Below, in pieces: positions 855 to 43,025 of a stretch of 64,000 nucleotides of DNA. The stretch's first letter is position 1; each line of letters starts with the position of its first letter. Source of the DNA: Schmidtea polychroa (lineage: Eukaryota); assembly GCA_044892525.1 (NCBI GenBank), contig CM097885.1:82336001-82400000 (forward strand), read 5' to 3'. Position numbers and translations under genes: made by a program. The notes beneath the pieces were generated by a model. It was not told the DNA's origin, made no database searches, and was given only the letters and a program-made list of their open reading frames with translations.

Positions 855-2414
855 GTACTTTGAAAATAATATGTAGAATCCACGAATCTAATATCCAAAT
901 ATATATAAACAATTGCTAAGAACTAAATTGAATAGTAAATAAACCTAGGACTTCTGGAATGAACTAGTTGATCGGATAATGTAGTGGATTAAATCTGTGT
1001 TGGTAAACAACTTAGATTAGTTTTCATAATTAAATGTAAATTTCCGAACTTATCTCTGTTATTAAATTATTAATTAAATACGATTTTTTGATTTTACTTC
1101 ATTATTAATTATCATTTTTGGGGAATTAATAAATAAACATCGAATTTTGAACAAATTCTCATTGTGAAACATCAACTTTTAGAATTTAAAATGGAATAAA
1201 TAGGTTTAAATCAACTCTCGTAATTAACCATACACTTGTGGAATTTATCAGTGAATTTGGAGATAATCATGGTTTGGGAAATCCACCACATCCCTTGTTT
1301 TCGTCTGCTGGTATGGTACGTTCTATCCTTTGGTTTTTGTTCGTAAGATCAATGTTTACTTTTGAAATTACTGACAGTAAATTATCCCGATAGGTTTGAG
1401 TTACGAGTTTTAATTCATCAACATATGTTGTAAATCTCAGTTTTTTTTTTAAATCACTTTCCTTGTAACGATAATCACTAACAGAGTAATCATCTAACAT
1501 CTTCTAAAGGGTTGACCGTTGAAGGAATATTCGGTATTAAAATTCCTAATAAATGGACAAATATTAAAGTGAACAAGATAATAAGTTGTCTTCATCCATC
1601 AGTCAATAAGGCTTATCGTAGTGAGCAGAGTGTGGCCACAAAAATAAGCAAAAATATTTTTTTAATTTGACCTTTTTCATGGAGTAATATTATATGTAAA
1701 CGTACATTCAGAGTCATTTACTACGACAAAACACTAGGACATTGTACGGGGCAAGACTCAATATGATCACACTACAAAGCTTGTAATCGATAATCCTAAT
1801 TAACTCTAAACTATCAGTAATATCGGATAAAGAGATTCCATTTAAATTTGTTAAACATCAAATTGCCCACGAAACTAATTTCAATAGGCGTAATTTTATG
1901 ATTGGAAATAATTTCAAATTCCAATGCCTCGACTTTTGAAAATATGCTACTATCCATTAATAAATAGCTATCTTTAGTTCTAACCTTTATGATCTTGCAT
2001 TTATATTAATAGATTTAATTTAATGTGGATATGCTATCTAAATGATTGGTGTGAATTATTCAACTACTGATAACTGAAAATTGGTAATTATACATTAAAA
2101 GGTACAAATGTTATAATAGTATTCTCCCTGTGTTTATCGATCCACATTCAATGCTCACTGAAAAAATGTACATATGTAGGTGAAGGTGACACTTTTTGTC
2201 CACCACTGGAGAACGATAACTCTGAGATAGTTGACTCGGGGAACAAAGTATGGGGTTTCGAGGACTTATCTGGGATAGATATTGTAGAACCAGTGGTTGA
2301 TCAGGATGATTTAGTTAATATGGTTATTGATTCAAATAATCCAAATAGGTATTACGTTGAATGCATGACTGAGAAGAAACGCAGATAAATCCATGTGTCT
2401 CTGAACACTCTTAT

Positions 2415-2933
2415 AGTAGGGTAATGTGTGGAGCCGGGAACAAAGAACTATTACGTAATCGATGACGTCACATAGGAAATTACGTCATACCCCCTCTGAC
2501 GTAATTTTATTTTTTTATTTTAATTTTTTTTAATTTGTTTTTTAAAAATATATTACGTTGCGGTATTTTAAATATATTACATTGCGGTATTTTAAATATA
2601 TTACGTTGCGGTATTTTAAATATATTACGTTGCGGTATTTTAAATATATTACGTTGCGGTATTTCAAAATTTAATTATATTTTAATTATTAAATATATTA
2701 CGTTGCGGTATTTTAAAATTTAAATTTAAAAACTGATTTTGACGAAAAAGTTGACAAAATAAAATTATTATTACACACAATGTATATATATAGTCTATCA
2801 GACAAGATATTCCTTCCCCCTATGGTCACACACACAATGTAGAAAAAATATTATTAGTGTCCACACATGCAACAAGTTAGTGTTCTCATCGATAGCTCAT
2901 CTTAAAGTCTAGTATAAGATCTATCTATTGAGA

Positions 2934-2967
<34 letters not shown>

Positions 2968-3120
2968 CTATATACTCCGAGTCTATCCGACAAAATATTC
3001 TGTCCCTCTATGGGTACTGCTCACAAAAGTAAAGGTCACAAATGTACTGCTAAAAATATTCAAGACAAAACTTTAACAAAGATATTATACTTTAAATATA
3101 CACTAAAATTTATTAACACA
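2415..3120 (+). repeat. Left terminal inverted repeat of the Polinton
   Basis: Reverse complement of 15888-16383, with block indels (extra segment at about 2804-2930 and an expanded 24-bp array on the left). Confidence 0.92.
2546..2716 (+). repeat. 24-bp tandem repeat (AAATATATTACGTTGCGGTATTTT x5 plus one degenerate copy) inside the left TIR
   Basis: Read directly from the sequence. The right TIR has a single copy near 16215-16238. Confidence 0.9.
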
Positions 3121-3282
3121 CTGGGTAAAGGTCACAAAGGTAACTAATGTACTGTTAAAAATATTCAAAACAAAACTCTAACATATTATTACACACACAA
3201 TGTATAAAAATTGTTCACAAAGTTACTGTTAAAAATATTCAAGACAATAAGATCAATACATTTATTAAATAATTTAACCACA

Positions 3283-6200
3283 TCATCGAAAATAATCATG
3301 TCCAAAATAATTATCATCTGCTGGATCATGGAAATCATCTGTATCATCTGCTGAGATAGCTTCCGTTGAATCTATAAATATATCGGTGTCACCGCCCCTA
3401 TAATGTCCATATGCCAAACTTTGATTTTTATCCACCCAATTTCGCTTATCATCTCTACATGTCAAGGCTCTTTTATTATTTTTAATACTAAAAAGTTGGT
3501 AATTTTTTGACGTTATTCTAAACTGAGGGACTGTGTATATTTTATCATTTAAATAACAATCTAGATACGACTGATGTGTTAGTCCAGTATCTTTCATACT
3601 TATCCCCTTAGCCTTCATACTTTCCTCATCACCCATCAAACTGTAACATTTAGGTCTCAAGAACACCCAATCTTTATATAATAACCCTTTATTCTCGTCT
3701 TTGAATTTACCAATAACAGAATCAAGGTTCCTACTATATAAAGGATGATTTGGGTCATAATTCGAAGTATCTAATAATTGATCTCTAATCATCGCAGGTA
3801 AAAGAATGTCAAGACTACAATGTTTAATTTCCAAGAAGAAGGAATCTGTGTCTCCAGCAACGATATTAATTTCGCAGTTGAATTCGTCGCGATATTTTTG
3901 CAACTCTTCATACTGCAGCTGGTACATCCTGAGTTTGGATAAATCTAGTACAGTTTGACCAATGTAACTAGGTCTATTCAAACACACTATGTCCTTCCTC
4001 AATAAAACCGAAATCAAGTCATCATCGATTTTCGTGGATTTACGAAAAGTCGGTTTCGAACAGAATGTTGTTAATTTCTGTGAAGAATTACACAGACGTA
4101 AATTAATACGTTTTTTAAGATTTTCAACAGTCTTGCCGTAAAGACTGTTGTTTAATAATTTATAAAAATTTTTATCGAGTTTATTTGTCGACGCTGCTCG
4201 TAACGCCGTATTTGTGTTAATATAATTTTTGAAAATTTTATCTTGTTTAAATTTAATTGCTCTATGTGTTTTTGATATTTTAACACCTAATTTAATAAAT
4301 ATTTGTAGAAGCCTCCAATGAAGAACGTAGTTCCTCTTGGGGCTGTGTGTAAGCAACAGCTTCTCTATTTTTGAACCCGGTACACACATCTTTTCAGCGG
4401 CAACGGGAAGATCGTCCAGTTTGTCGTGAATTGACGTCGGTATTTTTAAATCCACTTCTATGGTATAACCATAATCAAACAGATCTAAATCTACCGTTGT
4501 GCATTCAACAATTATATTATTTAATAAATTATCATCAGTAACCCATTCAAAGTCACTGCAAGGTAATGGTTGACTTAAAGCCCAACCGTATAAATTATTT
4601 ATATCTATGTAAAGCAAAGCAGTATCCGGGTCTGTTTTTACATAATGTTTATTTACAAAAGTTAGTCCGCCACGGATACCGCCCTCGAAAAAGTTATACA
4701 TCTCCATATCGGTGAGGAGCTCAATTGGAGAGTTTAAAGTTAATAAGGCTGAATTCCAAGACATACCTGGAATCCCTAAGAAATTTAATGGCTCTAGTCG
4801 GTTATGAGCAACGGACTTAGCTCTAAATTGCTGGAAAAAATCGGCTAAAAGGAAAACATCAAGTTTTAAATAAACCATCATGTAATCGAAAAGTGAAGTA
4901 CATGAAGTTTCAACCCAAATTCGCTGAGCTGTCTCATATTCAGCGGGAGTCACATCTTTCCAAATAGGAGGTAACTGACGAGAGTTATGTAAAACTTCTA
5001 ATGAAGTTGCGGCATCATAAGGAAAAATTCCCTTTGCAGTTATTATTGTACCCTGAAATTCTGATTCGGTCAAGGGTAAATATGATAAAGTTTTGACAGC
5101 ATTATTTAAAGACTCGCTGACAAATTGATAAGAGTCTATAAATTTAACAGTTAATGAGTCAATCCTAGCAAAAAGACTAAGGAATTTCTCGCTGGTTAAA
5201 GGAATACAACTAATATTCCATGAATGATATTTTGAAAGGCCAAATTTCAAGATATGATGCAGATCATAACCCTTTAAATTATGAAATACTACAGGAAGGG
5301 TATGTCTAATTTGCCTCGACAGATTACAAGTTGTACAAGTGGCACCGAGATATAGACCGGTAAAATGATCATGGTCCCTAACTGGACTAACTAAAGGCTT
5401 ATTGCACAAATAACATGATGTGCTGTTTTCAAACATTAATTGTTGCTCATCTGTAATTATCATTTTCTTTTGATAATTTTTATAATAATAAGGAGTTACA
5501 ATATATTTCCCTATCATTTTAATTTCAGTAAGAAATTGATCGACACAATCTAAACCGGTGAACGACTTATAAATTTTTACGCCCGTGAAATTATTAATAA
5601 AAAGCATACCGGCAGAAATAGGCAGATGACGTTGAAAGTAGCTAGTGTCTTTAGGTAAGATAGCCTCAAAGTCAGCGTAAATAACAAAGGGAGGAGTGAC
5701 TGTTTTACTCCAATCAGTAAATTCTAAATATTTATTTTTAGGCAATGTGTACAAGGTAGTACCAAGCTGATTTTTATCGCAAAGACCCTTATGTCTATTA
5801 AAAGCGTCATCATTTCTAAAACCGTTTAAACATCTAGGGCACCACTGACTACAAATCCTAACAGGAGTGATTGAACTATTCCTACAATTAAGGAATCTAT
5901 TTAGGTCTGTGATTCCAAGATAATGATAATTATCATTCTTTTCAATTAATAATAAATTGATAGGTATGGCTCCTACTATCTTACTCCTGTATATTATATC
6001 AATAAAGGGATATTTCATAACTGCATCTTCATCGGAAATGTCAATCAAAGCCTTTTCGTTATAAGTAAGAACATTTATACTATAACCTGGATTTTGTTGT
6101 TCAAATTTACTTATATTTGATAGTTTCATCGGCATATCATTAGGATCAAATTTAATTTCAGAAAGATTGTATGAATTAGGGCGATTTCTATATTGCCTAT

Positions 6201-6897
6201 TTATACTATCATATTTAATAATTGACAAGAAACTATACAAAAAACAGAAGTGGTCATTATTAACTACATTAACGAGACAGCTTAAGTTTCTTAAAGATTT
6301 TGGGGTTTCAATAAAACTTCTACCACTTAACCGACTTATTTCAGCAAATTTAGTCAGAACAAAGCTTATGTATTCTATTTTATTGATAGTCCAATTACTA
6401 CCTTTCTCATTAATTTTAATTATTTTTTCATTTAAACGAGCAATACCTTCGTCAATGAATGTATCGCTCCAAACTCGGGCGGAATTCGCGATTACAAAAG
6501 ATTGTAACTCATCATCTTTTATAAATTCCACCTTTAGACAAAATTGAATTTTACATGATTTTAATTTATTTACATATAATTTTAATTTATTTATTAAAAT
6601 GTCTGGTACAGAGACCGTTTTTAAATCTAAAGACGAAACGTCCATTTTTAATATAATATGATTATTATTTAAATCACTGGTGACATCTACGACACCATAA
6701 CCTATTTGATTAATATTATTATAATTATTATTATTACCATTATTATAATAAATATTACTACTACTACTACTATTATTATCAATTTCATCATCACTTATGT
6801 TGATTATTTCATCATCACTTATTGTAATTACATCAATAACTTTAGATTTTTTACTTGGTATTGAATTTATTTTTTCATTATTTTTTCTTTTATTCAT
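3283..6897 (-). CDS. polB: Protein-primed family B DNA polymerase (pPolB), 1204 aa, uninterrupted
   Basis: Exo I YADFE, Exo II FHNLKGYD, Exo III KLDVFLL; Pol motifs YIDINNLYG, KLLNNSLYGK, GDTDS, KFKDE, RPKCY, KAKGI. Also an EndoVII-like insertion (CYLC...VRDHDHFTG...CTTCN), a C2H2-like finger (CPRC...HKGLC) and an N-terminal DHFCF...HY segment resembling the vOTU-like domain known in Polinton pPolB. Confidence 0.97.
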   Translation of the reverse strand: MNKRKNNEKINSIPSKKSKVIDVITISDDEIINISDDEIDNNSSSSSNIYYNNGNNNNYNNINQIGYGVVDVTSDLNNNHIILKMDVSSLDLKTVSVPDILINKLKLYVNKLKSCKIQFCLKVEFIKDDELQSFVIANSARVWSDTFIDEGIARLNEKIIKINEKGSNWTINKIEYISFVLTKFAEISRLSGRSFIETPKSLRNLSCLVNVVNNDHFCFLYSFLSIIKYDSINRQYRNRPNSYNLSEIKFDPNDMPMKLSNISKFEQQNPGYSINVLTYNEKALIDISDEDAVMKYPFIDIIYRSKIVGAIPINLLLIEKNDNYHYLGITDLNRFLNCRNSSITPVRICSQWCPRCLNGFRNDDAFNRHKGLCDKNQLGTTLYTLPKNKYLEFTDWSKTVTPPFVIYADFEAILPKDTSYFQRHLPISAGMLFINNFTGVKIYKSFTGLDCVDQFLTEIKMIGKYIVTPYYYKNYQKKMIITDEQQLMFENSTSCYLCNKPLVSPVRDHDHFTGLYLGATCTTCNLSRQIRHTLPVVFHNLKGYDLHHILKFGLSKYHSWNISCIPLTSEKFLSLFARIDSLTVKFIDSYQFVSESLNNAVKTLSYLPLTESEFQGTIITAKGIFPYDAATSLEVLHNSRQLPPIWKDVTPAEYETAQRIWVETSCTSLFDYMMVYLKLDVFLLADFFQQFRAKSVAHNRLEPLNFLGIPGMSWNSALLTLNSPIELLTDMEMYNFFEGGIRGGLTFVNKHYVKTDPDTALLYIDINNLYGWALSQPLPCSDFEWVTDDNLLNNIIVECTTVDLDLFDYGYTIEVDLKIPTSIHDKLDDLPVAAEKMCVPGSKIEKLLLTHSPKRNYVLHWRLLQIFIKLGVKISKTHRAIKFKQDKIFKNYINTNTALRAASTNKLDKNFYKLLNNSLYGKTVENLKKRINLRLCNSSQKLTTFCSKPTFRKSTKIDDDLISVLLRKDIVCLNRPSYIGQTVLDLSKLRMYQLQYEELQKYRDEFNCEINIVAGDTDSFFLEIKHCSLDILLPAMIRDQLLDTSNYDPNHPLYSRNLDSVIGKFKDENKGLLYKDWVFLRPKCYSLMGDEESMKAKGISMKDTGLTHQSYLDCYLNDKIYTVPQFRITSKNYQLFSIKNNKRALTCRDDKRNWVDKNQSLAYGHYRGGDTDIFIDSTEAISADDTDDFHDPADDNYFGHDYFR

Positions 6898-7046
6898 ATT
6901 AATTAGATTATTTATTTGATCATTTAATTTATTTACTTGATCCTTTAGTTTAGTTATTTCGTTTATATCATTATTATTGGTGTTGTTAGTATTATTGTTG
7001 GTGATATTATTATTATTATTGTTGATATTAATATTATTGTTGTTGA

Positions 7047-7077
<31 letters not shown>

Positions 7078-7479
7078 AAACGATTCATATAAGCTATAGA
7101 AAAGAGATTTCTTAGAAGGTTTAAATTGTTGGAGATGGAGTCTATGCTTATTATAAAATTCTTATACGTTATAACTTCAATAACCTCACATTAAGGGCAT
7201 AGGATGTAGGTGACACCGTTATATTTATGACTATAATATCTTTCCATTATATCATCGCAGTCATTATGATATTGACTATTACAAAGGTTTTGGTATTTCA
7301 AACCTATGAAAATATTTTTATCATAAAATGGTTCAAAATATTAAGATAATTTTAATAATCATTTTCAAAGTTTAACATATTTTTCGTAAGATATTATTCA
7401 AAATTGTCTTTTAAATAGTATCTTATAAAAAATATTATAAAATATATAATTTAATTCAAAATCATCATATTGAATAAAT

Positions 7480-7740
7480 CTTCCTTTCAAAATTATCTTC
7501 TTTTCATGAATAAATTTTCTTTTCATAAATCTTCCTTTCAAAATCATCATAAATAAATCTTCTTTTCATAAATCTTCCTTTCAAAATCATCATAAATAAA
7601 TAAATCTTCTTTTCATAAATAAATATTCTTTTCATAAATCTTCCTTTCAAAATCATCATAAATAAATAAATCTTCTTTTAAAATATCTTCTTTTCATGAA
7701 TAAATCTTCCTTTCATAAGTTTCTTTATAATCTTCTTTTA
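7480..7740. repeat. Imperfect tandem repeats of about 30-45 bp (AAATCTTCCTTTCAAAATCATCATAAAT-like), followed by (ATT)n to about 7786
   Basis: Recurring AAATCTTCC/TTTTCA motifs read directly. Confidence 0.75.
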
Positions 7741-7788
<48 letters not shown>

Positions 7789-7843
7789 ATTGTTTAAAAA
7801 ACTTAAAAACCTCAAAAACTTATAACAATAAATAAATACTTAC

Positions 7844-8127
7844 ATTTTCGTCCTTTCGAAAGAAATTTTCCAGCATCAGAACCAGCAGAAGTATTTATTA
7901 CATTTCCATCTAAAAGCATAATAAAAATAATAATGATTATAATAGTAAACTATTACCATTTATTCTATTCATGTCTACAGCTTGTCCGTCGATATTCATT
8001 TTAATTTGTTGATTAGTACCTAATAATCATATTAAAAATAATAAAATAATAAAATAATAAATTTACCATTAATTCCTCCAACAATCTTTCCGTCAACTCT
8101 TTGAATATTGTTGTTGTTGTTGTTCAT
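7844..8127 (-). CDS. Spliced Polinton accessory gene of unknown function; exons 8127-8067, 8019-7957, 7909-7844; 3' end unresolved
   Basis: Two 47-nt GT-AG introns (8066-8020, 7956-7910) and a perfect GTAAGT donor at 7843. The spliced frame is open: MNNNNNNIQRVDGKIVGGINGTNQQIKMNIDGQAVDMNRINDGNVINTSAGSDAGKFLSKGRK. TATATAAG near 8190 and ATTGG near 8225 lie upstream on this strand. Confidence 0.7.
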
Positions 8128-8473
8128 GTTGTTAAATATTGTTAATAGATTTTTAAAAGTGATGAAAAAAAAATGAAAGTGTAGACTATATAAGAGAGAT
8201 ATTACAGGTTTTATTAACCGACCAATGAAAATAGAGATAGGATAGGAAAAGACGCTACATGTTTGTTTATACAAACCATGACGAAATAATGACCTTTACA
8301 CGTCTTTATTACTCAGTTCTTTGTTACTTTGCACTGTGCATGCACTGAACATGGTATAGTATTACATAATATTTTTAAACATAAAATAATAATATTTAAC
8401 AAATAATAATATTTAACAATATTTAACAAATAATTAAAATAGTCAACAAAAAAAATCATACAGTTTACATTTA

Positions 8474-8821
8474 TTAACCATCAAATTTTTTATACAACAA
8501 CCATGCCAAACAGTGTTGACCACATGTTTGAGTCAATGGATTTTGAAACATAGTTTTATTATATACAATAGGTTTCCCAATTGTTTGAAGTTTTGATATC
8601 AACAAAGCAGGATAATAGAAACCCATAGGATCGAATACGAATATATTACCAGGTTTCACATATATAGCTATCCAATGTTCTCCACCAAGATGAGACGAAT
8701 GAGTATTGACGATTATGGCTTGATTATGGCTCAAATAAGGAATTTTATCGAGAGGAAAAACACCTACAAATTCATTTCCTAATATTTGTTTTCCAATTCG
8801 ATTAACCTGAACAGAACTACT
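8474..8821 (-). CDS. Adenain-like (Ulp1 family) cysteine maturation protease; start codon not found
   Basis: Catalytic motifs GEHW, FDPMG and QTCGQHC. The frame is open upstream of the listed ORF (FVGVFPLDKIP) up to a TAA at 8822-8824. Confidence 0.9.
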   Translation of the reverse strand, partial: SSSVQVNRIGKQILGNEFVGVFPLDKIPYLSHNQAIIVNTHSSHLGGEHWIAIYVKPGNIFVFDPMGFYYPALLISKLQTIGKPIVYNKTMFQNPLTQTCGQHCLAWLLYKKFDG

Positions 8822-8885
8822 TTAATAAATCCTGAGTATAAAAAACAACTTACTCCATGACAACTTTTTGTGTTTCTGTATACAT

Positions 8886-10109
8886 TTATACTAGCACGGT
8901 TCTATTTGAAGTAATTTGAACTTCATTTTCAAATACTCCATATATTATAACATGTACCGGTTCTGTAATGGCCTTTGCAAACTTAATATCCAGTCGTAAA
9001 TTCCCGTTTTGTGGTAGTTGACTCTGATTTAAATCAAAATCGGGAGCTAAAACAAATGTGAAAAATGGATATTTGCTTTTAAATTATTCTAGAGTAATTC
9101 CACAATTCAAGTTTTTATCTAAGTAACCCAGATTTCTAACAATACTCTGCATATATGTTGCACAGTAATTATCGCTTTCGAAATCTTGAGTATATGTTTC
9201 TCTATAATCAGTATTTTTCGACAAAGTCAATGAAGTAACACCAAAATTTTTGAAAATTGAGCTGGACGCAGTATAAGATCCATTATATTGTGTTTCACTT
9301 TGAAATGTCACCAGAATAAAATTAGGCATTCGTCTGTCACCAAATATTTGTTCTTTATAGAATGATGAAGCACCTTTAGCAATAGCAAATTGTACAATTT
9401 CCTTTGTTTTCAAAGGATAAATTGCATGTTTTGAATTAAGACCCAATTGATGACCAGCTAATACTGACGGGTCTACTCGAACTCTTCTCACCAATAATTT
9501 TGCATCAACTAATTGACATATTGGTGCACCAGTAGCACTAGTAAGAGATATTGCAGAATCGGACCTTTTCAATCTAATATGTATATTAACTCCCGGTAGT
9601 AAATATTTCGGTTGATCCATAAAATCAAGTTGTAATGATGAGCACATAGTGAATACTTTTGAACCTTTAACCCACTTTTTTCTTTCATCATCTGCTGCTG
9701 CATAACCCATAGGTGTAAGACAGGTATTTTTAGTATCGGAATTGTAATTTAAAATAGTTTCTATCAAAGCCTTGTGAATGAATGTATTATTTCCGCCCTC
9801 AATCTTGATATTATTAAATCCCAACACTGCATCTTTAAACAGAGTATGAAACATGAAATTGTTTGGTAATACATCCGCATTGGCATCTAAAACTTTTCTA
9901 TCTTTATCTACAACTTTGATCTGAACAGTCAATAAAGTATCGTTCAAATCTAAATATTCAGTTTGCGAACCATTAATATAAAACTCGATATCATTTCTAC
10001 TATCAGTAATTGAATTCATAGGAAAAACTTCTTCAAATGCCCCAAATTCTATTACAGCCTAGGGTGATGGTCTATCAAATATACATAATTCGGATTTACC
10101 ACAAATCAT
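8886..10109 (-). pseudogene. Double jelly-roll major capsid protein (PY) with two in-frame stops
   Basis: ATG at 10109 gives MICGKSELCIFDRPSP*AVIE (TAG 10059-10061), the typical SEL.LF..P..Q N-terminus. After TAA 9084-9086 the frame continues FKSKYPFFTF...GNLRLDIKF...VIIYGVFENEVQITSNRTVLV*, the typical MCP C-terminus. Confidence 0.9.
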
Positions 10110-10474
10110 TTTGCAAATATAGTTCCATGTCCTTTCATTCGTTTGTTTATACGTGATATTCCATGTCCTTTACGTTTTGGAGCGTGATTTGGGACTGGGG
10201 GTTCATCTTTTTGAAACATACCAGCAACTCCAGGTAGAACCTTACCTAATTCAGCTAAAGCATTTGTTTTTAGGGATGGTAATATTTTCTGTTCATTCAT
10301 AATCACATCTTTTGCAGTTTTCATACCAAAACTACCAATACGTTTAAGAATAGGAAGTGCAAATCTCCCTATTGTTTTTAACCAACCTGATCCGTACTGT
10401 TTACCAATAAAATATGGTAATTCCCCGCCAGATTGGCTATCACTATACATACTAATAATATCGGAATTAGCCAT
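10106..10474 (-). CDS. Polinton virion core/cement-type protein with GG and GxG protease-site-like motifs
   Basis: QSGGELPYFIGKQYGSGWLK...PILKRIG, a basic C-terminus, and the conserved position between penton and MCP. Its TGA overlaps the MCP ATG. Confidence 0.7.
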   Translation of the reverse strand: MANSDIISMYSDSQSGGELPYFIGKQYGSGWLKTIGRFALPILKRIGSFGMKTAKDVIMNEQKILPSLKTNALAELGKVLPGVAGMFQKDEPPVPNHAPKRKGHGISRINKRMKGHGTIFAK

Positions 10475-11533
10475 CTACTTTACGAAAATGTAGTGTCAAA
10501 TGAGTTTTTGAGTCTTTTAGGAAGTTTATAAGTTTTCCACTATCGTCACGAATATTTATTTCTATATTGTTTATATATGAGCTTGAAATTGGTAAATACA
10601 TGGGATTATCTATATTTATATTGACAACTTCATCATGTTCATATTTTCCAATCCACACCGATCTCAATATAGGAACACTGGAATCACCAACAATTATAGG
10701 CTCAATAATATTAGTATATATGAACATTTGTTGATGATGTTCAAGTATTCTTGGTTTACGTATACCAGCCGATTTTTCCCGATATTGCTGCTTCTCTAAT
10801 CCAAGTGTATTTGTCAAATTTTTATCAAATGTAACTTCGCAAATGTCATCATTCAAACTGAATGTAAATAACAAATCTTTCACAATGTCAAACTTTTAAA
10901 TATGTGTGAACAATAGTACTTTAAATATTTAAGTAATACATCAAGTTTATCAATATATAATTCGTCAGCGAAGGTGAATGATTCTTCAACTTCATTATTA
11001 TACGACACTGATATTTTGATTTCTTCTCTCATTACACTGTTTGCTTCAAATAGATCAAAGCGTAATAAATATTCTGTTTCCATAACTTCATTTTTCAACT
11101 TATTGCAGCCCATTCGTCTGGCATCTTCAATATATTCGAATGTTATTGTAAATGGTTTAAAATCACAACTGATATTTAATCCATCCTTGTAAAACATAGA
11201 GCAATGCGGATCTAATATTTGATTCGGAATATGATATGTTTTATCATAATTACTGATAATAAAGATACCACTACATGTTTTCATAGCATTCCTTTTGAAA
11301 TCAATCTTACATTGACTAAAAAATGGGAATGTATTGTACACGAATGTAAAATCTTGCAGTGCAACTTCCCAGTCCCCATTTAAAGAAATCGGATTCTGGA
11401 GATTGACCATGAATTTACTGGCTTGATTATCTGGATGAATAAGCGGCCAACTATTGCTTGGTAAAATAGTATAAAAATTCACTTTACTAGATCCTCTTCT
11501 GATATCCATGATGGGTTTTGATAACCATGCCAT
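10467..11533 (-). pseudogene. Minor capsid protein (penton, PX) split into two frames at about 10883
   Basis: N-terminal FYTILPSNS...LQNPISLNGDWEVAL and C-terminal FIYTNIIEPIIVGDSSVPILR...IEINIRDDSG...LHFR are the two conserved ends of Polinton pentons. One extra T at AGT-TT-GAC would fuse the frames. Confidence 0.85.
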
Positions 11534-12531
11534 TTGACATAGTATTGTTTATCCTTGCCGACCTTTTTAGTTTTCAATATCTTTTGAATTCTAAATACTT
11601 TTGGGGGAGGAATGACTTGTAATTCCTGCTCATAAAATTTCCCTTGTACAATATTATTATCATAATCACTGATAACATACATTACAGGACTCTGGCTAGT
11701 ATTTATTTTTGAAATTACAAAGACTTCATCACTCCAATTTGTATCGAAATTTTTAATAAATGGTGATGCACTAATTTTACTAATTCTAACATGGTCACCT
11801 ACTTTATATTTCGGTTTTGTAATTTTTACAGGTTTTTTAGAATAGATTGTTTTTGAAGTGATATCAATCGGTCTTAATCCATTCAGTCCTCGATGTGATG
11901 AATGATTATAACTGGTTATTATTTTTGGTAAAACCAGTACCCATTTTTTATTACCTTGATGCACGAATAATTTCTTTAATCTATCTCTCAATGTTCGGTT
12001 AAATCTTCCAACATGAGCAGCTTTGTATTGAGAATGTACTGAGTAATGGTTTATTTTCAATTTATTGAGGATTTGCTTGACTTTACTGTTGTAGAATTCT
12101 TTACCTAAAATAATAATAATAATAATAATAATAATATTAATACCTAAATCCGTTTGCAAGTTATTAGGATGTCCATCTTTAAATAAATCATTAACAGCAT
12201 TAGACATTTCATCTGCAGATTTTGCCTTGACGGGTATTGCTCGGGCAAACCGACTGAATACATCAATACATGTTAAAATATATTTATACCCATTGTTAAT
12301 TTTCGAATAAGGTATCATCTCCATCAAATCCATTTGCCATAAATCATTTATTCCATATGTTTTATATACTTTTGTTGGGAATCGTTTCCGCATTGGTTTG
12401 TTCAAACTGTACGCAAGCTGGTCTGATAACCACTTCTGGGTTTCTTTTTTCGAATTCGGAACTCTTTTCTTTAATTTTGCCACTCCACCGAAACCGGCTT
12501 CGTCTTCGGGGTTCGTCCAAATCTTCTCCAT
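11479..12531 (-). CDS. int: Retroviral-type (rve) integrase with C-terminal chromodomain-like region; 39-nt intron at 12143-12105; catalytic Glu appears mutated
   Basis: WQMDL, IDVFSRFA, LQTD(L)GKEF after removing the GT...AG insert, HVGRFNRTL (usually ERFNRTL), YYVKWHGY...SWI. Likely ATG at 12531. Confidence 0.93.
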   Translation of the reverse strand: MEKIWTNPEDEAGFGGVAKLKKRVPNSKKETQKWLSDQLAYSLNKPMRKRFPTKVYKTYGINDLWQMDLMEMIPYSKINNGYKYILTCIDVFSRFARAIPVKAKSADEMSNAVNDLFKDGHPNNLQTDLGINIIIIIIIIILGKEFYNSKVKQILNKLKINHYSVHSQYKAAHVGRFNRTLRDRLKKLFVHQGNKKWVLVLPKIITSYNHSSHRGLNGLRPIDITSKTIYSKKPVKITKPKYKVGDHVRISKISASPFIKNFDTNWSDEVFVISKINTSQSPVMYVISDYDNNIVQGKFYEQELQVIPPPKVFRIQKILKTKKVGKDKQYYVKWHGYQNPSWISEEDLVK

Positions 12532-12589
12532 TACAACAAGAAGATTTAATATCAAATTTAATGTCTGGTAATGAAGGATTAGCACCCAT
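12362..12589 (-). CDS. Small ORF overlapping the integrase start, with N-myristoylation (MGxxxS) and CC motifs
   Basis: MGANPSLPDIKFDIKSSCCNG. A homologous open frame of the same extent exists in the relic at 42748-42972. Confidence 0.65.
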   Translation of the reverse strand: MGANPSLPDIKFDIKSSCCNGEDLDEPRRRSRFRWSGKIKEKSSEFEKRNPEVVIRPACVQFEQTNAETIPNKSI

Positions 12590-12592
12590 TGT

Positions 12593-13087
12593 TTATGATC
12601 GACTTCCTACAACTCCACCTAATAATGATATTGCTAAAGGTATCAATGCACCGATAAATCCCCCTTGTTGTTTATATATAATTTTTCTCATTTGTTGACG
12701 ATTTTTATTATTTACTAATGATAGCAAAGGTTTCCTATGTTTACTCAATAAATGCTTTTTAGATTTACTGATTTTGATCTTGCCTTTGACTACTTTAAGT
12801 ATAATATCGAGTAAATCATCGACAACATAATTTGGAAAAGATTGCAAAATACTGTTTCTTTTCATACTGGGTGCCTTTAACAATGTATTGAAAAACGGGA
12901 AACTCCGATGATTTTTAACAACTTTTACTTTCTTAATGGTTTTACTTTTAGGTTTAGGTTTAGGATTTTTCGAAATAAGATTCATTGCAGGAAAATTTTC
13001 TGTAATAAGTTCTTTAGATGGAGTATAACTAGTTGTTGGTGGAACTTTTGGTTGTTTTTTACTCGATATCCTTGTTTTTGAAAACAT
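12593..13087 (-). CDS. Lys-rich Polinton core protein with a QQGG motif followed by a hydrophobic helix
   Basis: KQQGGFIGALIPLAISLLGG C-terminus; conserved position between ATPase and integrase. Confidence 0.7.
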   Translation of the reverse strand: MFSKTRISSKKQPKVPPTTSYTPSKELITENFPAMNLISKNPKPKPKSKTIKKVKVVKNHRSFPFFNTLLKAPSMKRNSILQSFPNYVVDDLLDIILKVVKGKIKISKSKKHLLSKHRKPLLSLVNNKNRQQMRKIIYKQQGGFIGALIPLAISLLGGVVGSRS

Positions 13088-13100
13088 GATTTATGTGTTT

Positions 13101-13739
13101 TCAAATTTGTTTTGAACTTTGTTTATAAACCATGGCACCTTTTGGGTTGAAAATATCTGTTTTTACTCGTAAATCATCAGGACATTGTTGTGTGAAATCG
13201 AGAAATATATACCCATGAGGTATTTTCGTAGCATCTTGAAATGCATTGATAAGAAAATTACGGTTATTAGGGTATGCTTGTCGTCCAAGAAAATCAATGA
13301 CAGTTGCATCTCTAGGATTCTTGAAAATAACTAGATATTATACATTTAAATTACGTGTTCGATGTGCACCACCTTGATGAAATAGATTTTGTGTTATGAA
13401 AATAACTGTAACACCAACATGTCTGCTGATTTTTGTGAATTGATTATTAAAATCCTTTTCTTTATTGGCTTCTTGATACAAATCATCGATAATGATGACA
13501 TCATCTCTCTTCAAACGACTTGACCAGTTTTTATCAAAACCCTTTACTATTTTCATGTTTTTCAACTGACAGAAACTTGATTGCGTCAATCCGTGTTCTT
13601 CATCGGCGCCCCTATGCCAATAAATATTGTTGAATTTTATTTTGAACAAATTTGATTTTAGTAATTTACAAACAAATAATGTTTTTCCGCTACCACTTGG
13701 ACCAACGATTTGGTATACTGCATCATTTCGTAATTCCAT
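13101..13739 (-). pseudogene. A32/FtsK-like genome packaging ATPase with one in-frame stop (13338-13340)
   Basis: Walker A GPSGSGKT, Walker B VIIIDD, SRH and ITQN. After the TAA the frame continues YLVIFKNPRD...AFQDATKIPHGYIFLD...LRVKTDIF to TGA at 13101-13103. Confidence 0.93.
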
Positions 13740-13845
13740 TTTTTAAATTTAAACTATATAATTATTGTTTATATTGATAATTTAAATGAACTCCGTTTTA
13801 AAATAACTATATATATAACAGAGTTTTTATAATTATTTCATTAAA

Positions 13846-14259
13846 ATGCTTTCAAATATAAATTACAGGGCAAAAGCTGATGTATCAAAAATGGTATTTC
13901 CAATGGGGAAACCACAACAACTTATCAATAGAAGTAAAAAATATCCAATAATATATTTCAAAACTGGTAAATGTAGAATTATGGGGTGTAAGGAAATAAT
14001 CAAAGCTAGTGAATATAATGTTTATGATTTAGAAATACAATCGATAACCGTAACTTCCGATATAGGTTTTTTTTGTAATTTAAATGAATTGGCTAAATTA
14101 ATACCATGTGTTTACGAACCAGAATTATTTCCAGCTTTGAGATATATAAAATATAACCCTATGTGTGTAAATATATTCGCTAGCGGTAAGATAGTAATTC
14201 TTGGAATAAAAAATATTGATTACAAATGTATAGTTGATAATATCCTATCTGAAATTTAA
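13846..14259 (+). CDS. TBP: TATA-box binding protein (TBP)-like protein, 137 aa, inside the Polinton
   Basis: Second repeat IQS...YEPELFPALRY...IFASGKIVILGIK matches eukaryotic TBP IQN...YEPELFPGLIY...IFVSGKVVLTGAK. A shortened first repeat retains YFKTGKCRIMGCK. Confidence 0.88.
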   Translation: MLSNINYRAKADVSKMVFPMGKPQQLINRSKKYPIIYFKTGKCRIMGCKEIIKASEYNVYDLEIQSITVTSDIGFFCNLNELAKLIPCVYEPELFPALRYIKYNPMCVNIFASGKIVILGIKNIDYKCIVDNILSEI

Positions 14260-14427
14260 TCAATAATTGAAGGAAATGAATTTTTAGATTTTTTATTATC
14301 ACTTAATTAATTATTTATCATTGCAAATTCAATGCAATTGAAATGCATGATTCTGATTGGTCGAAATCTAATTGGCTGATGATTATTTATAACAAAATGT
14401 TTTCGGTTTAGTTGTCATTTTTAAACC

Positions 14428-14834
14428 ATGTACAACATACAAAGTTCAGCTATAGCAGCCATGAAAGAACATGAACATTATGGTAAATTTTAATTGTATA
14501 TATCATATTATTATTATTATTTACAGATGAATATCATGCAATAATACTGGAAAGATTGTATTTTTATTACCCGCAAATGTATGATATTCTCAAAGATCGA
14601 GATGTTGCAATAATCCCAGATTTAATTTACAATGAAACCAGAATCTGTATTTTCGATATTATCAATACATTTCTCTGGGATGTGAAGATTGGAAGAACAA
14701 TGAATGAAGTAGAAGTAGAATACCCTTGCAGTTTGGGTTGTAGCTGTTGCAATTTCCGCTACCAGAGATATGTCGAATGGTCTTTGGTAAAGACACTTCG
14801 TAATTACCATTTTTGTCAAATTTTATCCAAATAA
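14428..14834 (+). CDS. Spliced Polinton accessory gene (exons 14428-14482, 14527-14834), Cys-containing, unknown function
   Basis: A 44-nt GT-AG intron (14483-14526) joins an ATG exon in frame to the listed TTG-start ORF. ATTGG boxes lie upstream near 14355 and 14373. Confidence 0.7.
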
Positions 14835-15000
14835 ATTTTTATGTTTAACCATTTTTTGCTTTGTCTTTTTAGTAATAGAAATAATATTAATAATAATAAT
14901 AATAATTTTAATAATATAAAACGTGTGTCAATGCAATATCATTGCAATTTAAAACAAAGACATGCAGCAATCTGATTGGATGATAAACAATAGTCATAGG

Positions 15001-15008
15001 TATATAAA
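15001..15008 (+). promoter_or_regulatory. TATA box (TATATAAA) with an upstream ATTGG (CCAAT) box near 14975
   Basis: Lies 34 nt upstream of the ATG at 15042. Confidence 0.5.
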
Positions 15009-15041
15009 CCCTGTACCATTTCATTTTAATCATAATTCACG

Positions 15042-15461
15042 ATGACAAAGAAAATTTCAAGTACTGAAAAACCAAAAGTTGTTCCAGAACTTGTAAAACC
15101 TGTTCAAATGTTCCACAACTATAAAATGTATTTTTTAAAAGAAGAAATCAATATGAAATTGGTTGCACCAGTCAAGCTAATTCCAACTAAATTTCAATTC
15201 TTATCCGGCACGCTTTCAATGATTGATGTAAAAACTATTAATGATGTTTTTAAACGGTTGAATACGAATCTATCTTGTAATCAACATGCATTTTTCAACA
15301 ACCGATATGCAAGATTTTATGATTCCTTTGATGAAATCAGCTTCAAAGAAAACGAAAATTGGTATATAACAATTGCAATCCAAGGATATAAAGTTGATAA
15401 AATTGATGTGTATTCTCCAATTTGGAAAATTATGTCTGCTAGACTTTCACAGATATTTTAA
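15042..15461 (+). CDS. Polinton accessory protein, 139 aa, possibly an OB-fold ssDNA-binding protein
   Basis: Clean ATG-to-stop ORF with a TATA promoter. The beta-rich aromatic C-terminus (WYITIAIQGY...YSPIWKI) suggests the fold, which is unverified. Confidence 0.6.
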   Translation: MTKKISSTEKPKVVPELVKPVQMFHNYKMYFLKEEINMKLVAPVKLIPTKFQFLSGTLSMIDVKTINDVFKRLNTNLSCNQHAFFNNRYARFYDSFDEISFKENENWYITIAIQGYKVDKIDVYSPIWKIMSARLSQIF

Positions 15462-15564
15462 TAAATGTTGTTGTATTTAATAAATGTATTTAGTTATATT
15501 TGTTTTCGCTTATATTCTATATTTTCTATAAACAAATATATACTATAGTTTTAAAATACAAATA

Positions 15565-15905
15565 ATGACTACAGAAAAAGGTTAATATGATTAGTTAATT
15601 ATTGAATTATTTAATATTTAGAATTTATAATAAACTTTTTATTGGAAAAATTAGCAGAAATATCTGGTGTGAAAATGGAGGATATATTATCTGTTACAAA
15701 CGCATTACATATAGACTGGGTAACAGAGAGTGAAACTGATAAAGAAAACACTCCAGATGATGAGGAAAGTATTCAAGAAATTGATGAACCTATGGAGGAA
15801 TTTACAGATACTGAACCATGTGTATATAGCGATTGTATAGATCATGTTGTTGAAAATGTTATGAAATGTGGAGATGATGAATGTGAATGTGTTAATAAAT
15901 TTTAG
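15565..15905 (+). CDS. Spliced acidic, Cys-tipped accessory protein (exons 15565-15580, 15622-15905)
   Basis: A 41-nt GT-AG intron (15581-15621) joins ATG ACT ACA GAA AAA G in frame to the listed ORF. The last codons lie inside the right TIR. Confidence 0.7.
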
Positions 15906-16082
15906 TGTATATTTAAAGTATAATTTCTTTGTTAAAGTTTTGTCTTGAATATTTGTTAGCAGTACATTTGCGACCTTTAGCTTTGTGACCTTTACCTTTG
16001 TGAGCAGTACCCATAGAGGGACAGAATATTTTGTCGGATAGACTCGGAGTATATAGATTAATAATAATAATAATAATCTGAT

Positions 16083-16149
<67 letters not shown>

Positions 16150-16383
16150 TGTGTGTAATAATCATTTTATTTTGTCAACTTTTTCGTCAAAATAAGTTTT
16201 TAAATTTAAATTTTAAAATACCGCAACGTAATATATTTTTAAAAAAAAAATTTTTAAAAAAAGAAAAAAATAAAATAAAAAAAAAAGTACCCCACTTCGG
16301 GGAGGGGGTATGACGTAATTTCCTTTGTGGCGTCATCGATTACGTAATAGTTCTTTGTTCCCGGCTCCACACATTACCGTACT
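15888..16383 (-). repeat. Right terminal inverted repeat of the Polinton, containing a (TA)n microsatellite at about 16087-16146
   Basis: Reverse complement of 2415-3120. Confidence 0.92.
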
Positions 16384-16439
16384 TCTTATATCCAACGAAA
16401 ACCATAAACAATTGGAAGTTAGCATAAAATATAATTCAA

Positions 16440-30489: not shown

Positions 30490-31109
30490 CTGAGTGGATT
30501 GTTAAAATATTGGTATTAATCTCCTTTCCGACGAGTATTTTATCTCAGGGGCTTACTAAAAATAGATTTGGTGACCTTTGTCACTAGGGTAATCATAAAA
30601 TCAATATTACGATTGGCACAGTTATAGTAGCAGAAACAATGCTATCTACAAATATTATTCGATAGCGTCGCCTCGCCTGACTATCATATGACCCAAAAAA
30701 ATGTAATTTGGTTTATAACTTGTATTTTAAATGATACACAGTATCTTAATGGTATTTGATGTGGCTGTCAATGGTCCTACCACTGGGGGCTTCATAAAAT
30801 TTTATAATTCATGTTTTTATATATACTATAAGTTTAATATATATTGGGATAGGTTGATTTAAGTTATTTATGTAATGGTTAGTGTCTATGCGAAATTGGT
30901 GGGGGGTCGTTTATAAAAAATTTGTATTTTTATAAATAATATAAGATTAATATCTGTCATGACAGGTTGGCTTAAGTGGTTTATATACCGGTTAGTATCT
31001 AGGCAAAATTGAGGGAAGTCATTTATAGAAAATTTATAATTTATATTTTTATGAATATTATAACTTCAGTATAATTTATGATTTAATCTATTTCAATCGT
31101 GTTCTTTCA

Positions 31110-32211
31110 TTAATTGTCGATGAGTCTCAAAGCAATCAAAAATTTTTCTTCAATCTTTTGAGATACATATATACCTTTATAATTTGTCTCATAGACATTT
31201 TGTCCACACTTTGTTTCAGTTTCTTTTCTCAGGAATCGCATCCCATCTTCCTCCGAGGTTGACATTAACACTGTTGGAGTATCTTTCATCCGTAGCGGTG
31301 TGATTCTTGTTGTTGTACTCGTTGCTGGATCCATTCTTATTTTCTCAGACTTTTCCCTGATCTGCTCTCCCGTTATTTCTTTAAAACTCATTGACTTCAA
31401 TTGCAATAAATTGCACTTTTTGGTATCGACATCGTACACCAAGATTGATTCTCCGGTCTGACAGCTAGATTGTTTCATGTTGCAGAATGGATGTGTTTGT
31501 AGTTTACCAGTATCATCATCAAATGATCCATCAAATTCTCTTAATTCTGACATGTACTCTTCCACAACCACGTCTTTGTCAATTATAGCATCGTCTACTT
31601 TGTAGGGCTCTCCTTGGCAATCACCATTCGACTTTATTATCCCTCGCACGGTTACAGTCTCACGTATTTTGTGGTTAAGCTTTGCTTGTAGTTTAATATC
31701 TGCATTGATTTTCAACTGCCCTGTTTGAAAGGCTGCCAAACAATTCTCTGGAATTATTTCTATCGGTCTCGGTATCGATTGCATTTTCACCATCGATGAG
31801 TGGCTCCATTTTCCACAATAAAATACAAAAGTAGTTCTTTTCGCTGCACACTCTCTCACCTTTGCTCGTCGAAACCCCGATTCTTGATATACATGATATA
31901 TATTTTACTGGATTTGTCACTTTAAATTTTACTGGATATGCATCCGAACACTCTGCTACGTTTACCAACGAATATACTCTTCCCATTTCGGTTTGGGAAC
32001 AGTCGTATGCCACCAATGAATTCGTCGTGTTTATTATTCCCAATAACATAATAATAGAAATCATCAACCATGGAAATGCGAGTTTTCCCTTTTTCCTCAA
32101 TGTCTCTGTTTTTGGGCTCTCAGCCTTTTGTATTAACTTTTCCCATCCGCCATTGTTTGCCATCCCCTTCATCAAATATTTATTTGTCATTTCAGTGGCT
32201 TTCTTTATCAA
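31110..32211 (-). pseudogene. env: Envelope glycoprotein resembling chuvirus/Monjiviricetes class III fusion proteins; frameshifted at about 31895, C-terminally truncated
   Basis: Signal-like segment (AFPWLMISIIMLLGIINTTNS) followed by LVAYDC…YSLVNVAEC. Removing 2 nt of the TATATA run gives KYHVYQESGFRRAKVRECAAKRTTFVFYCGKWSH, then ENC, GDCQG, PFC…SCQT, KCN and KCGQNVYET. Confidence 0.75.
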
Positions 32212-35667: not shown

Positions 35668-36732
35668 TGTTGGGTTTTGGATTATTTCAAGTCGTTCTCT
35701 CTGACTCCTGTGTTCTTTTAATCAAAACAATGAACGACCCAACGTATATTGAAACAACAGGTTCACAATTTATTATCACGCTACAATTACTAATCAAAGT
35801 TTTATACGATTCTCCGCTCGGCGTTGATGCTTTGCAAACAAATAATATTCACCTTTTAGTCCTTTAGATTCTCTCGATTCACGTTTTCCTCGGTTTCTGT
35901 TTGGTTTGATTCCTTTTCACCTTTCCGTATTCTTAATTCTATTTCTTCTTTTCCCTACTTTCCCTAATACGTTTACCAACTTTTCCTACGCTCTGATTCT
36001 TCAAACCCTAGCTGAGGCAAAATGCCGATTTTCTCTGATTTTCCCTTTGCTTATATACTCCTCGAAATCAGGATGACAAATGGTTATTGCCGAGCCAATC
36101 TTTCGTTTGACATTTGCTCCTACGTATTTGCTTCGGCTGTCACCCATAATGGTCCAACGAATCCAGATAATTAATGGCCCTACCGGTCTTCCTACGCGCA
36201 CTATCTTCTCCTTACTCTTTTCCAATTAATCATTGTGTCAAGCTAATGGGCCCAAATCTTCCTTCTGTTTGCTTTTCTTTTTGTTTACCCAGCTCGGGTT
36301 TCCTTCATCTCTCGGGTTCTCCATTGGCTCGGGTTCTCCATTGGCTCGGGTTTCCCATTAGCTCGGGTTTTCCATTAGCCAATTAATTAATTAATTAACG
36401 TTTTCTGTTTTCATACATTTGAATGCTTTTCGACCCTTCCTAACCATTTTCTGATAAATCCCTAATCATCATCTTGTTGACCATTAGCTAATCTATACCT
36501 GTCCCGTTTTCCCAATTCGATTTCGATGATTTTTCCATTTATTGATTTTTCTCGGATTTCCGGATTCTTGCCTTTCGTAATTGCTTTTGGCATTTTCTAA
36601 TACTGTTTCCATCACACTTTCCTTTACTATTGATTCTGTGCGCGATCCCGATTTTATTTGTCTTTTTTCTTCGCTTACTTTCTATTTGAATTATTATCCT
36701 AAATTTTTAATTTTAATTTATAGACCTCAACA
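35668..36732 (-). repeat. 5' LTR (family A, 1065 bp) containing a 17-bp CCAAT-box tandem array at about 36311-36378
   Basis: TG…CA termini with TGTTG/CAACA inverted ends. CTCGGGTTCTCCATTGG x2 plus variants. Confidence 0.85.
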
Positions 36733-37049
36733 CTTTTATGAATAATATAAGTTCAGTATAATTTATGATTTATACTTTTATGAATAATATAAATTCAGTA
36801 TAATTCATATTTTTATGAATAATATAAGTTTAGAATAATTTATAATTTATATTTTTATGAATATTATAAGTTCAGTATAATTTATAATTTATATTTGTGA
36901 ATTTACATAATGACAAACATATTTGATTTATGGGTTTTTTAAATTCATAATCTAAGTCTTACCGATACGCATGTCGAATACCTTTATGAGTATCATCACA
37001 TTTAATCCAATTATTATAAATTTCGAAAAATCTTTCCATATGAAATTAC

Positions 37050-42326: not shown

Positions 42327-43025
42327 CTATAATATAGATTTAGCAATCCAAGTCTTTCTAACATATTTGTTTCCGAAATCAACTAGTAGAAGACAAATAT
42401 TCTTTGAATCACTTAAATTTGTCTGAATCAAAGCTTTGTGGGCATATGTATTGTTACCACCTTCGATCTTGATGTTGTTAAAACCAAATATTATATCTTT
42501 AAATAAAATATGAAACACGTAGTTAGTTGGTATTATATCTACACCATCAGCTAAATCTTTTTTCTTTATCTAGAACCTTCAGTTAAATTGATAATAACAT
42601 GTCAGTTAAATCTAAATATTCGGTTTGTGAGCAAATCGACTAAATACATCAATACAAGTTAAAATATACTTGTAACCTTTACTGATCCTTGAGTTTGGAA
42701 TCCTTTCCATCCAATTTAACTGCCCTAAATCGTCAATGCCGAAAGTTTTATAGGGCCTTGTCGGGAATCTTTTCATCATTGGTTTTTTTAAACTGTATGC
42801 CAGTTGGTTTGACAACCAATTTTGTCTTTTTTTCGAATTCTTGACTGATTTCTTTAATCTTGCGACTCTGTCGAAAGATCTTGGGTCTTTCGGATTTGTC
42901 CACATTTTTTCCATTACAGCGATTTGAATCAAAATTAAGTTTGAAATTCGGTAGTGAAGGATTACTGTCCATTTTTTATGATGGTTAACCAAAAAAACCT
43001 GCTTCACCCAATAACGATAATGCAA
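42327..43025 (-). pseudogene. Internally deleted relic of a second, related Polinton (core-protein end, overlapping small ORF, integrase N-terminus, MCP fragment)
   Basis: VMEKMWTNP…YKYILTCIDVFSRFA and FKDIIFGFNNIKIEGGNNTYAHKALI match the integrase and MCP of the complete element. They are about 100 bp apart here versus about 2.3 kb there. Confidence 0.9.

Follow-up and report, generated by a model that had tools for sequence, protein, structure and literature searches.

The open reading frame at 13846..14259 on the forward strand of the window (the whole 64,000-nt stretch analysed here) is real and is derived from the TATA-binding protein (TBP). It belongs to a diverged, widespread family far from host TBP and is no one-off capture. 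We consider it probable, with room for doubt, that the minimal TBP of this family is a late-promoter specificity factor that reads (T/C)ATAAACA and recruits host TFIIB and Pol II. The wider proposition, that a broad branch of animal Polintons has its own early-to-late switch, made of a TBP of about 150 residues with a retuned saddle, a private (T/C)ATAAACA box, a direct plug-in to TFIIB and none of the surfaces that let the host regulate TBP, we hold more loosely, as leaning towards true. Box binding, TFIIB binding, the promoter role of the box and the early-to-late order are what we infer from the evidence below.

A TBP-derived gene family in Polintons

The gene lies in a Polinton/Maverick (adintovirus-like) element of 13,969 bp at 2415..16383. 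Such elements are recognised by terminal inverted repeats, AG...CT ends and a 6-bp target duplication. Here the inverted arms run from 2415-2496/16302-16383 inwards as far as 3054-3120/15888-15954, the termini read AGTA...TACT, and the forward-strand duplication TCTTAT stands at 2409..2414 on the left and at 16384..16389 on the right, so that the duplication-bounded element proposed by the sequence-only reading is borne out. The Polinton gene set of family B DNA polymerase (PolB), integrase, packaging ATPase and protease is present on the reverse strand, PolB and protease being assigned through relatives. Specifically, the packaging ATPase (Pox_A32 in Pfam; 13338..13739) is shortened in this copy and is followed by a conserved 164-aa cassette ORF (12593..13087) with no Pfam family above the cut-off, a retroviral-type integrase with a chromodomain (Pfam rve; 11479..12531), a putative minor capsid gene (10880..11533), a conserved 122-aa cassette ORF (10106..10474), a putative major capsid gene (9084..10019), a remnant of an adenovirus-type protease (8440..8900, limits approximate) and PolB (3283..6897). 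The capsid labels rest on place, size and conservation; neither gene has a Pfam match, the minor capsid frame is broken (217 aa, compared with about 355 aa in related elements) and the major capsid frame contains in-frame stops (311 aa, compared with about 410 aa in relatives). The protease was found by three-frame translation and its relative L061 matches Peptidase_C5; PolB is a 1204-aa open frame with an endonuclease VII insert, for which the relative L072 matches DNA_pol_B_2 and the window protein itself gives no PF03175 match.

On the forward strand, the TBP-like gene diverges from the ATPase across a 106-bp spacer (13740-13845), which contains, as previously described, the TA run TATATATATAA at 13808..13818 (forward strand, 38 nt upstream of the TBP-like ATG). 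Further along lies a 139-aa ORF (15042..15461, forward strand) with a predicted OB fold like that of phage and viral single-strand binding proteins, preceded by an inverted CCAAT and TATATAAA (14975..15008, forward strand). Its fold resembles T7 gp2.5 and ASFV CP312R (Z about 7, middling), and it adjoins the TBP-like gene in 21 of 81 loci; we considered it as a TFIIB-like partner and rejected this on account of the predicted OB fold. For two accessory ORFs of the element, Atlas searches gave no usable match. Other features of the element include a 75-aa ORF at 12362-12589, which begins with Met-Gly, lies across the integrase start in a different frame and is found again in relatives; a cysteine-rich accessory gene, probably spliced and without a usable Atlas match, downstream of the TBP-like gene (14430-14831); and an AAT-repeat stretch at 12098-12141, probably a short intron, across which the integrase frame stays open. 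The element, non-coding parts included, is covered by contigs of three presumed-RNA runs and one unlabelled run, and one presumed-RNA contig spans 13948-14292; with non-coding DNA covered as well, this speaks neither for nor against expression. Elsewhere in the window, a second Polinton fragment, 71-74% identical, lies at 42631-42982, and ORFs from 31110-32190 onwards, which we take to be a retroelement envelope or fusion gene, are flanked by repeats near 31005 and at 36692-36929.

The ORF runs from ATG to TAA over 137 aa and carries the motifs YFKTGK, YEPELFP and IFASGK from which it was originally recognised. The profile search and structure prediction that had been proposed as checks both return a TBP and thus uphold the earlier description of a miniature viral TBP: Pfam PF00352 matches with E=1.7e-14 (53.8 bits against a cut-off of 22.9), and the structure predicted from an alignment of 87 sequences (pLDDT 96) finds at least 44 PDB matches at E<=0.001 with Foldseek, all TBP among the matches listed, the best rows, again all TBP, having TM 0.66-0.78 of the query. 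In a wide structure search, residues 1-137 align on yeast TBP 66-234 (Z 12.9, rmsd 2.2), with the next fold at Z 6.7. The predicted fold is the two-repeat saddle with a reduced first repeat, and since all 137 residues align on yeast TBP 66-234, the short first repeat is, in the model, a genuine, pruned lobe.

The host is an animal, to judge by its own TBP exon, which reaches 86% identity with animal TBPs. Its genome contains no fewer than 150 near-identical copies of the gene (the best 150 of 4078 candidates, 96-100% identical and free of internal stops). Among 19 sister copies fetched, the ORF has 154 aa in 18 and 155 aa in one; the window copy has a premature stop and is 17 residues shorter at its C-terminal end than those 18. 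The sequence-only reading had called the gene intact among broken core genes, and this stands for the neighbours, as the ATPase (133 aa, compared with 212 aa in 12 of the 19 sisters) and both putative capsid genes are broken, but fails for the TBP-like ORF with its premature stop. The 19 sisters were picked as best TBP matches and hence say nothing on whether the gene survives longer than others; among 14 further loci, picked by Pfam score, the TBP-like frame is broken in five, and preferential preservation over core genes is rejected. Because it is shortened and surrounded by broken genes, the window copy is probably a dead copy of a working family.

That family is large. Of 98 candidates, 93 proved to be relatives, most of them about 150 aa long with 35-60% identity, and a library at 50% identity gave 63 clusters at E<=1e-30. 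In 80 metagenome loci, kept out of 122, a Polinton hallmark gene lies beside the TBP-like gene in 41; for loci of at least 4 kb the count is 20 of 23, and the 39 loci without a hallmark gene are mostly short contigs, although three of the 23 over 4 kb are among them. Gene order varies between groups of TBP-bearing loci, and further host subfamilies (53-62% identity) are mostly head-to-head with the ATPase. A tree of 45 rows, with giant-virus TBPs left out and long branches flagged, has one branch, supported at 100/99, that sets all 26 family rows apart from host TBP and from five rows of host paralogs; for eight of the 26 the genomic context is not known. L075, L080, L082 and L090 encode a longer form of the protein (167-171 aa) in which helix H1 is kept. 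Viral-contig scans gave a single match, L021, the contig of a large DNA virus that encodes ribonucleotide reductase, a split PolB and heliorhodopsin along with an ordinary TBP of two repeats; it was excluded from the counts and falls outside the family in the tree. The host also has diverged TBP paralogs at five or more loci (L103-L107), three of them without evident introns. At L134, L144 and L147, PolB sequence occurs in inverted pairs.

The survey and the tree against host TBP bear directly on the suggestion that the gene could be a one-off capture of the host's own TBP: the proteins form their own clade and have many copies. The shortened window copy might be taken for a recently captured host TBP fragment, carried along as a functionless passenger, a reading to which we give next to no credence. 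The separate clade, the 63 clusters and purifying selection (dN/dS 0.12-0.33 in 17 of 22 pairs, with dS saturated in the other five) all stand against it, and the tree and dN/dS refute it.

A retained TFIIB stirrup and an altered DNA face

To compare the family with cellular TBP, yeast numbering was transferred through flatworm TBP with P191 and I194 as anchors, and the 16 DNA-facing positions were taken from Table 1 of PMC12529657. The motifs of the ORF accommodate three of the four intercalating Phe and the EPEL stirrup, as had been claimed. Over 201 family rows, F116, F190 and F207 are kept at 99-100%; F99 has no counterpart in the family, in a stretch where the register is unsure. The acidic C-terminal stirrup for TFIIB (E186/P187/E188/L189) is 0.90 canonical, with E186 at 0.94 and E188 at 0.99.

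The DNA face is as tightly held to different residues. Its mean top-residue share over the 201 rows is 0.84 and its canonical share 0.38. The full set of four intercalating Phe and the hydrophobic DNA face of canonical TBP are both lacking. The replacements are V122>R, T124>M and L205>N (0.99 each), N159>S (0.86), V161>T (0.81) and I194>R (0.80), with V71>N and a Cys at about V203 as further fixed changes. In family numbering, R44, M46, N109 and S66 of the DNA face are 86-99% fixed. Helix H1 is filled in only 35 of the 201 rows, and gaps take up about 70% of H1/H2, including 70% of the basic face of H2. In cellular TBP, the convex N-terminal surface binds TFIIA, TAF1, Brf1 and Mot1.

The positions involved are known from other systems. 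I194, V203 and L205 are altered-specificity positions of yeast TBPm3 (PMC1636458), and V122, T124, V161 and L205 are polar in KSHV ORF24 as well, according to Table 1 of PMC12529657. Since the N-terminal lobe of TBP reads the 3' half of the box (PMC1636458), R44 and N6 could face the unusual C of the box described below. For TRF2, PMC10005294 links a missing intercalating Phe with loss of TATA binding.

A one-way ATAAAC box before cassette genes

Between 10144 and 13772, the window contains seven ATAAACA on the cassette (reverse) strand and none on the other. They lie 33 nt before the ATPase ATG (13766..13772), where the box is a candidate late promoter; 39 nt before the 164-aa ORF (13120..13126); inside that ORF, upstream of the small overlapping ORF and the integrase (12669..12675); 65 nt before the integrase ATG (12590..12596); within the end of the integrase gene, upstream of the putative minor capsid gene (11546..11552); 100 nt before the 122-aa ORF (10568..10574); and in the tail of the latter before the putative major capsid gene (10144..10150). 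The protease remnant has no box upstream in the window. Over the whole window, ATAAACA is not enriched (43 compared with 34.9; 9 of 100 shuffles as high), and only its place and strand are biased.

The same word recurs across the family. At -70 to -11 of the ATPase ATG, ATAAAC is present in 23 of 23 non-redundant loci (from 31) and absent from the antisense strand (0), compared with a shuffle mean of 1.4 and maximum of 4, a count made on the loci on which the box was discovered and in a set that still holds related loci. The distance to the ATG is 31-37 nt in 18 of the 23. The preceding base is T in 16, C in 6, G in 1 and A in none, and an A follows the C in 21; in the group of longer TBP-like proteins (L075, L080, L082 and L090), the box upstream of the ATPase is often CATAAAC. 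Within the same distance of other starts, ATAAAC precedes the 164-aa ORF in 8 of 11 loci, the integrase in 7 of 17 and the putative major capsid gene in 5 of 11, with shuffle means below one for each, and all 19 long cassettes have a sense-strand excess of the box. Because the cassette genes abut, boxes stand in upstream ORF tails: the last 150 nt contain one in 27 of 32 ATPase ORFs, 10 of 10 122-aa ORFs, 11 of 13 putative minor capsid ORFs, 10 of 17 integrase ORFs and none of 9 PolB ORFs. These boxes occur in two reading frames.

The TBP-like gene itself has a different upstream region. ATAAAC precedes it in one of 48 non-redundant loci and TATAWAW in 25 (shuffles: mean 7.9, maximum 15), counts that are blunted because some starts are misplaced; CCAAT (8 of 48; shuffles: mean 4.9, maximum 13) shows no clear enrichment. 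The TA run differs in length between copies and alone is weak evidence in DNA of 27-29% GC; it is likely an ordinary host-read TATA box. The sequence-only reading had looked to this run and to accessory promoters as targets of the protein. The TATA- and CCAAT-like words it named near 15001 and 8190 are present, but, like the TA run, they have the look of ordinary promoters read by the host. The evidence points instead to ATAAAC, which lies on the opposite strand of this spacer and also upstream of other genes of the cassette, as the candidate target.

A comparison is provided by another Polinton class that is abundant in this host (the window PolB is about 30% identical to it). Nine elements of this class contain no TBP-family gene, save for a neighbouring first-class element in L157, and the box precedes none of their 46 gene starts, in a control formed by a single lineage and by 20-kb stretches that may leave some elements incomplete; in some ATPase starts the word lies directly at the ATG. 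Three further scans found no further Polintons to serve as controls. The second class (L140, L150-L166) has a phospholipase A2-like domain fused to its integrase, and its genes start right behind TATAAAA-like words.

Proposed late transcription and competing explanations

We propose that the TBP-like gene would be made early, from a host-type TATA promoter, and that the viral TBP would then bind the (T/C)ATAAACA box before the virion-cassette genes. Bound there, it would recruit host TFIIB and RNA polymerase II to the packaging, integrase and virion genes, and the loss of the convex N-terminal surface may free it from TFIIA, TAF1, Brf1 and Mot1. Two functions had been offered earlier, driving the element's own transcription and acting as a decoy for TFIIB. 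The former gains ground and the pure decoy loses it, since conservation of the DNA face equals that of the stirrup and there is a box to match.

A host factor could nevertheless read the box, be it host TBP, to which the box would be a weak TATA variant, or a Forkhead protein (site RYAAAYA). The viral TBP would then act as a decoy or repressor, by sequestering TFIIB or by blocking promoters of the host. We regard this as unlikely, though it deserves some weight: the stirrup is almost unchanged, one intercalating Phe is lost, and wild-type TBP, having been crystallised on a C(-25) TATA variant (PDB 1qn3), may read TATAAAC. Yet a decoy needs no fixed DNA face, and R44, M46, N109 and S66 are 86-99% fixed; moreover, the box keeps one orientation and a set distance, only 2 of the 23 ATPase loci have GTAAAC, and no box precedes the gene starts of the TBP-less class in this host. 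If the viral protein does bind the box, it might do so as a repressor, or in packaging or replication, rather than to activate transcription together with host Pol II. The loss of most of the convex surface would allow such a role, as would the lack of a TFIIB-like gene nearby (none in 110 loci, by a five-sequence profile of low sensitivity), but the protein retains its TFIIB stirrup and the box is as far from start codons as a TATA box would be, which makes this reading rather improbable in our judgement.

The box might also act in RNA, as a poly(A)-type signal ending the upstream message, in which case the TBP-like protein would serve the TATA/CCAAT accessory promoters. The word does occur in the tails of upstream ORFs on the sense strand, and poly(A) signals include the variants TATAAA, CATAAA and GATAAA. 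Their strongest form, AATAAA, however, is found in none of the 23 ATPase loci; many sites precede the upstream stop codon; and the fixed C with its following A (21 of 23) is foreign to a poly(A) signal. In addition, the ATPase heads the cassette in the window and in most host subfamilies, and because the TBP-like gene points away, no upstream message ends at the ATPase box. We therefore judge a poly(A) role very unlikely and retain late-promoter recognition by the viral TBP as the preferred reading.

Viral TBP-directed late transcription is already known from herpesviruses. Like the beta- and gamma-herpesvirus TBP mimics, as described in PMC12529657, the Polinton protein has a TBP fold, polar residues at V122/T124/V161/L205 and a variant TATA box before genes predicted to be late, and both would serve nuclear DNA viruses that use the fold without a polymerase of their own. 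According to the same source, KSHV ORF24 is a protein of 752 aa with a Pol II-binding domain of its own and without the acidic stirrup; a clash with TFIIB is predicted for it, and its box is TATT. In contrast, the Polinton protein, at about 150 aa, consists of the core alone, retains the stirrup and has (T/C)ATAAACA as its proposed box, and the likeness is at the level of the fold; of the herpesvirus traits, the extra Pol II-binding and C-terminal DNA-binding domains and the loss of the stirrup are not found, and the variant box, in a predicted promoter, is. With cellular TBP and TRFs (PF00352) it shares the saddle over both repeats, N69, F116, F190, P191, F207 and the E-P-E-L stirrup, and it differs in its length of about 150 aa, the lack of an N-terminal tail, a mostly lost H2, the absence of F99, the fixed polar residues of its DNA face and its own clade. 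Large-virus (Nucleocytoviricota) TBP-like proteins match its fold in BFVD (best E 9.6e-8, 9-22% identity), more weakly than cellular TBP does, and giant viruses mostly bring their own polymerase.

In the openly readable texts searched, we found no account of this TBP-like Polinton family or of the ATAAAC box; subscription papers, Repbase entries, figures or supplements may already name the gene. By word search, TBP and TATA are absent from the main texts of PMC10748475, PMC11161782 and bioRxiv 2022.05.25.493380. Starrett et al. 2021 (PMC8502044) place a TBP label on a polinton-like element in a figure legend, in the section on non-animal datasets; it is one label without analysis, and the word "promoter" is absent from the main text. 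The same text describes a beta adintovirus with a divergent OTU-PolB and with GasderminX and Cupiennin in the virion module.

If the proposed mechanism is correct, this would be the smallest TBP-based transcription device yet, one protein of about 150 residues. It would parallel the late transcription of herpesviruses independently and supply an orthogonal pair of TBP and promoter made by nature, and it would be evidence that "transposons" of the Polinton kind have a staged viral cycle. How Polintons express genes without a polymerase, and whether they have a viral cycle, could then be approached directly through one small protein and a 7-base site. The box would provide a sequence mark for late genes in TBP-bearing Polintons, and the protein would show how TBP specificity has changed in nature at positions already familiar from the TBPm3 mutant of yeast and the herpesvirus mimics.

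A separate observation concerns the TFIIB genes of the host. Besides intron-bearing TFIIB and Brf1-like genes, it has many clustered copies of a TFIIB-like gene that lacks introns and encodes about 304 aa (13 of 21 matches; for example L128:4575-5486, L129:4485-5396 and L133:4458-5360). No Polinton link was seen at the intronless loci beyond stray PolB pieces.
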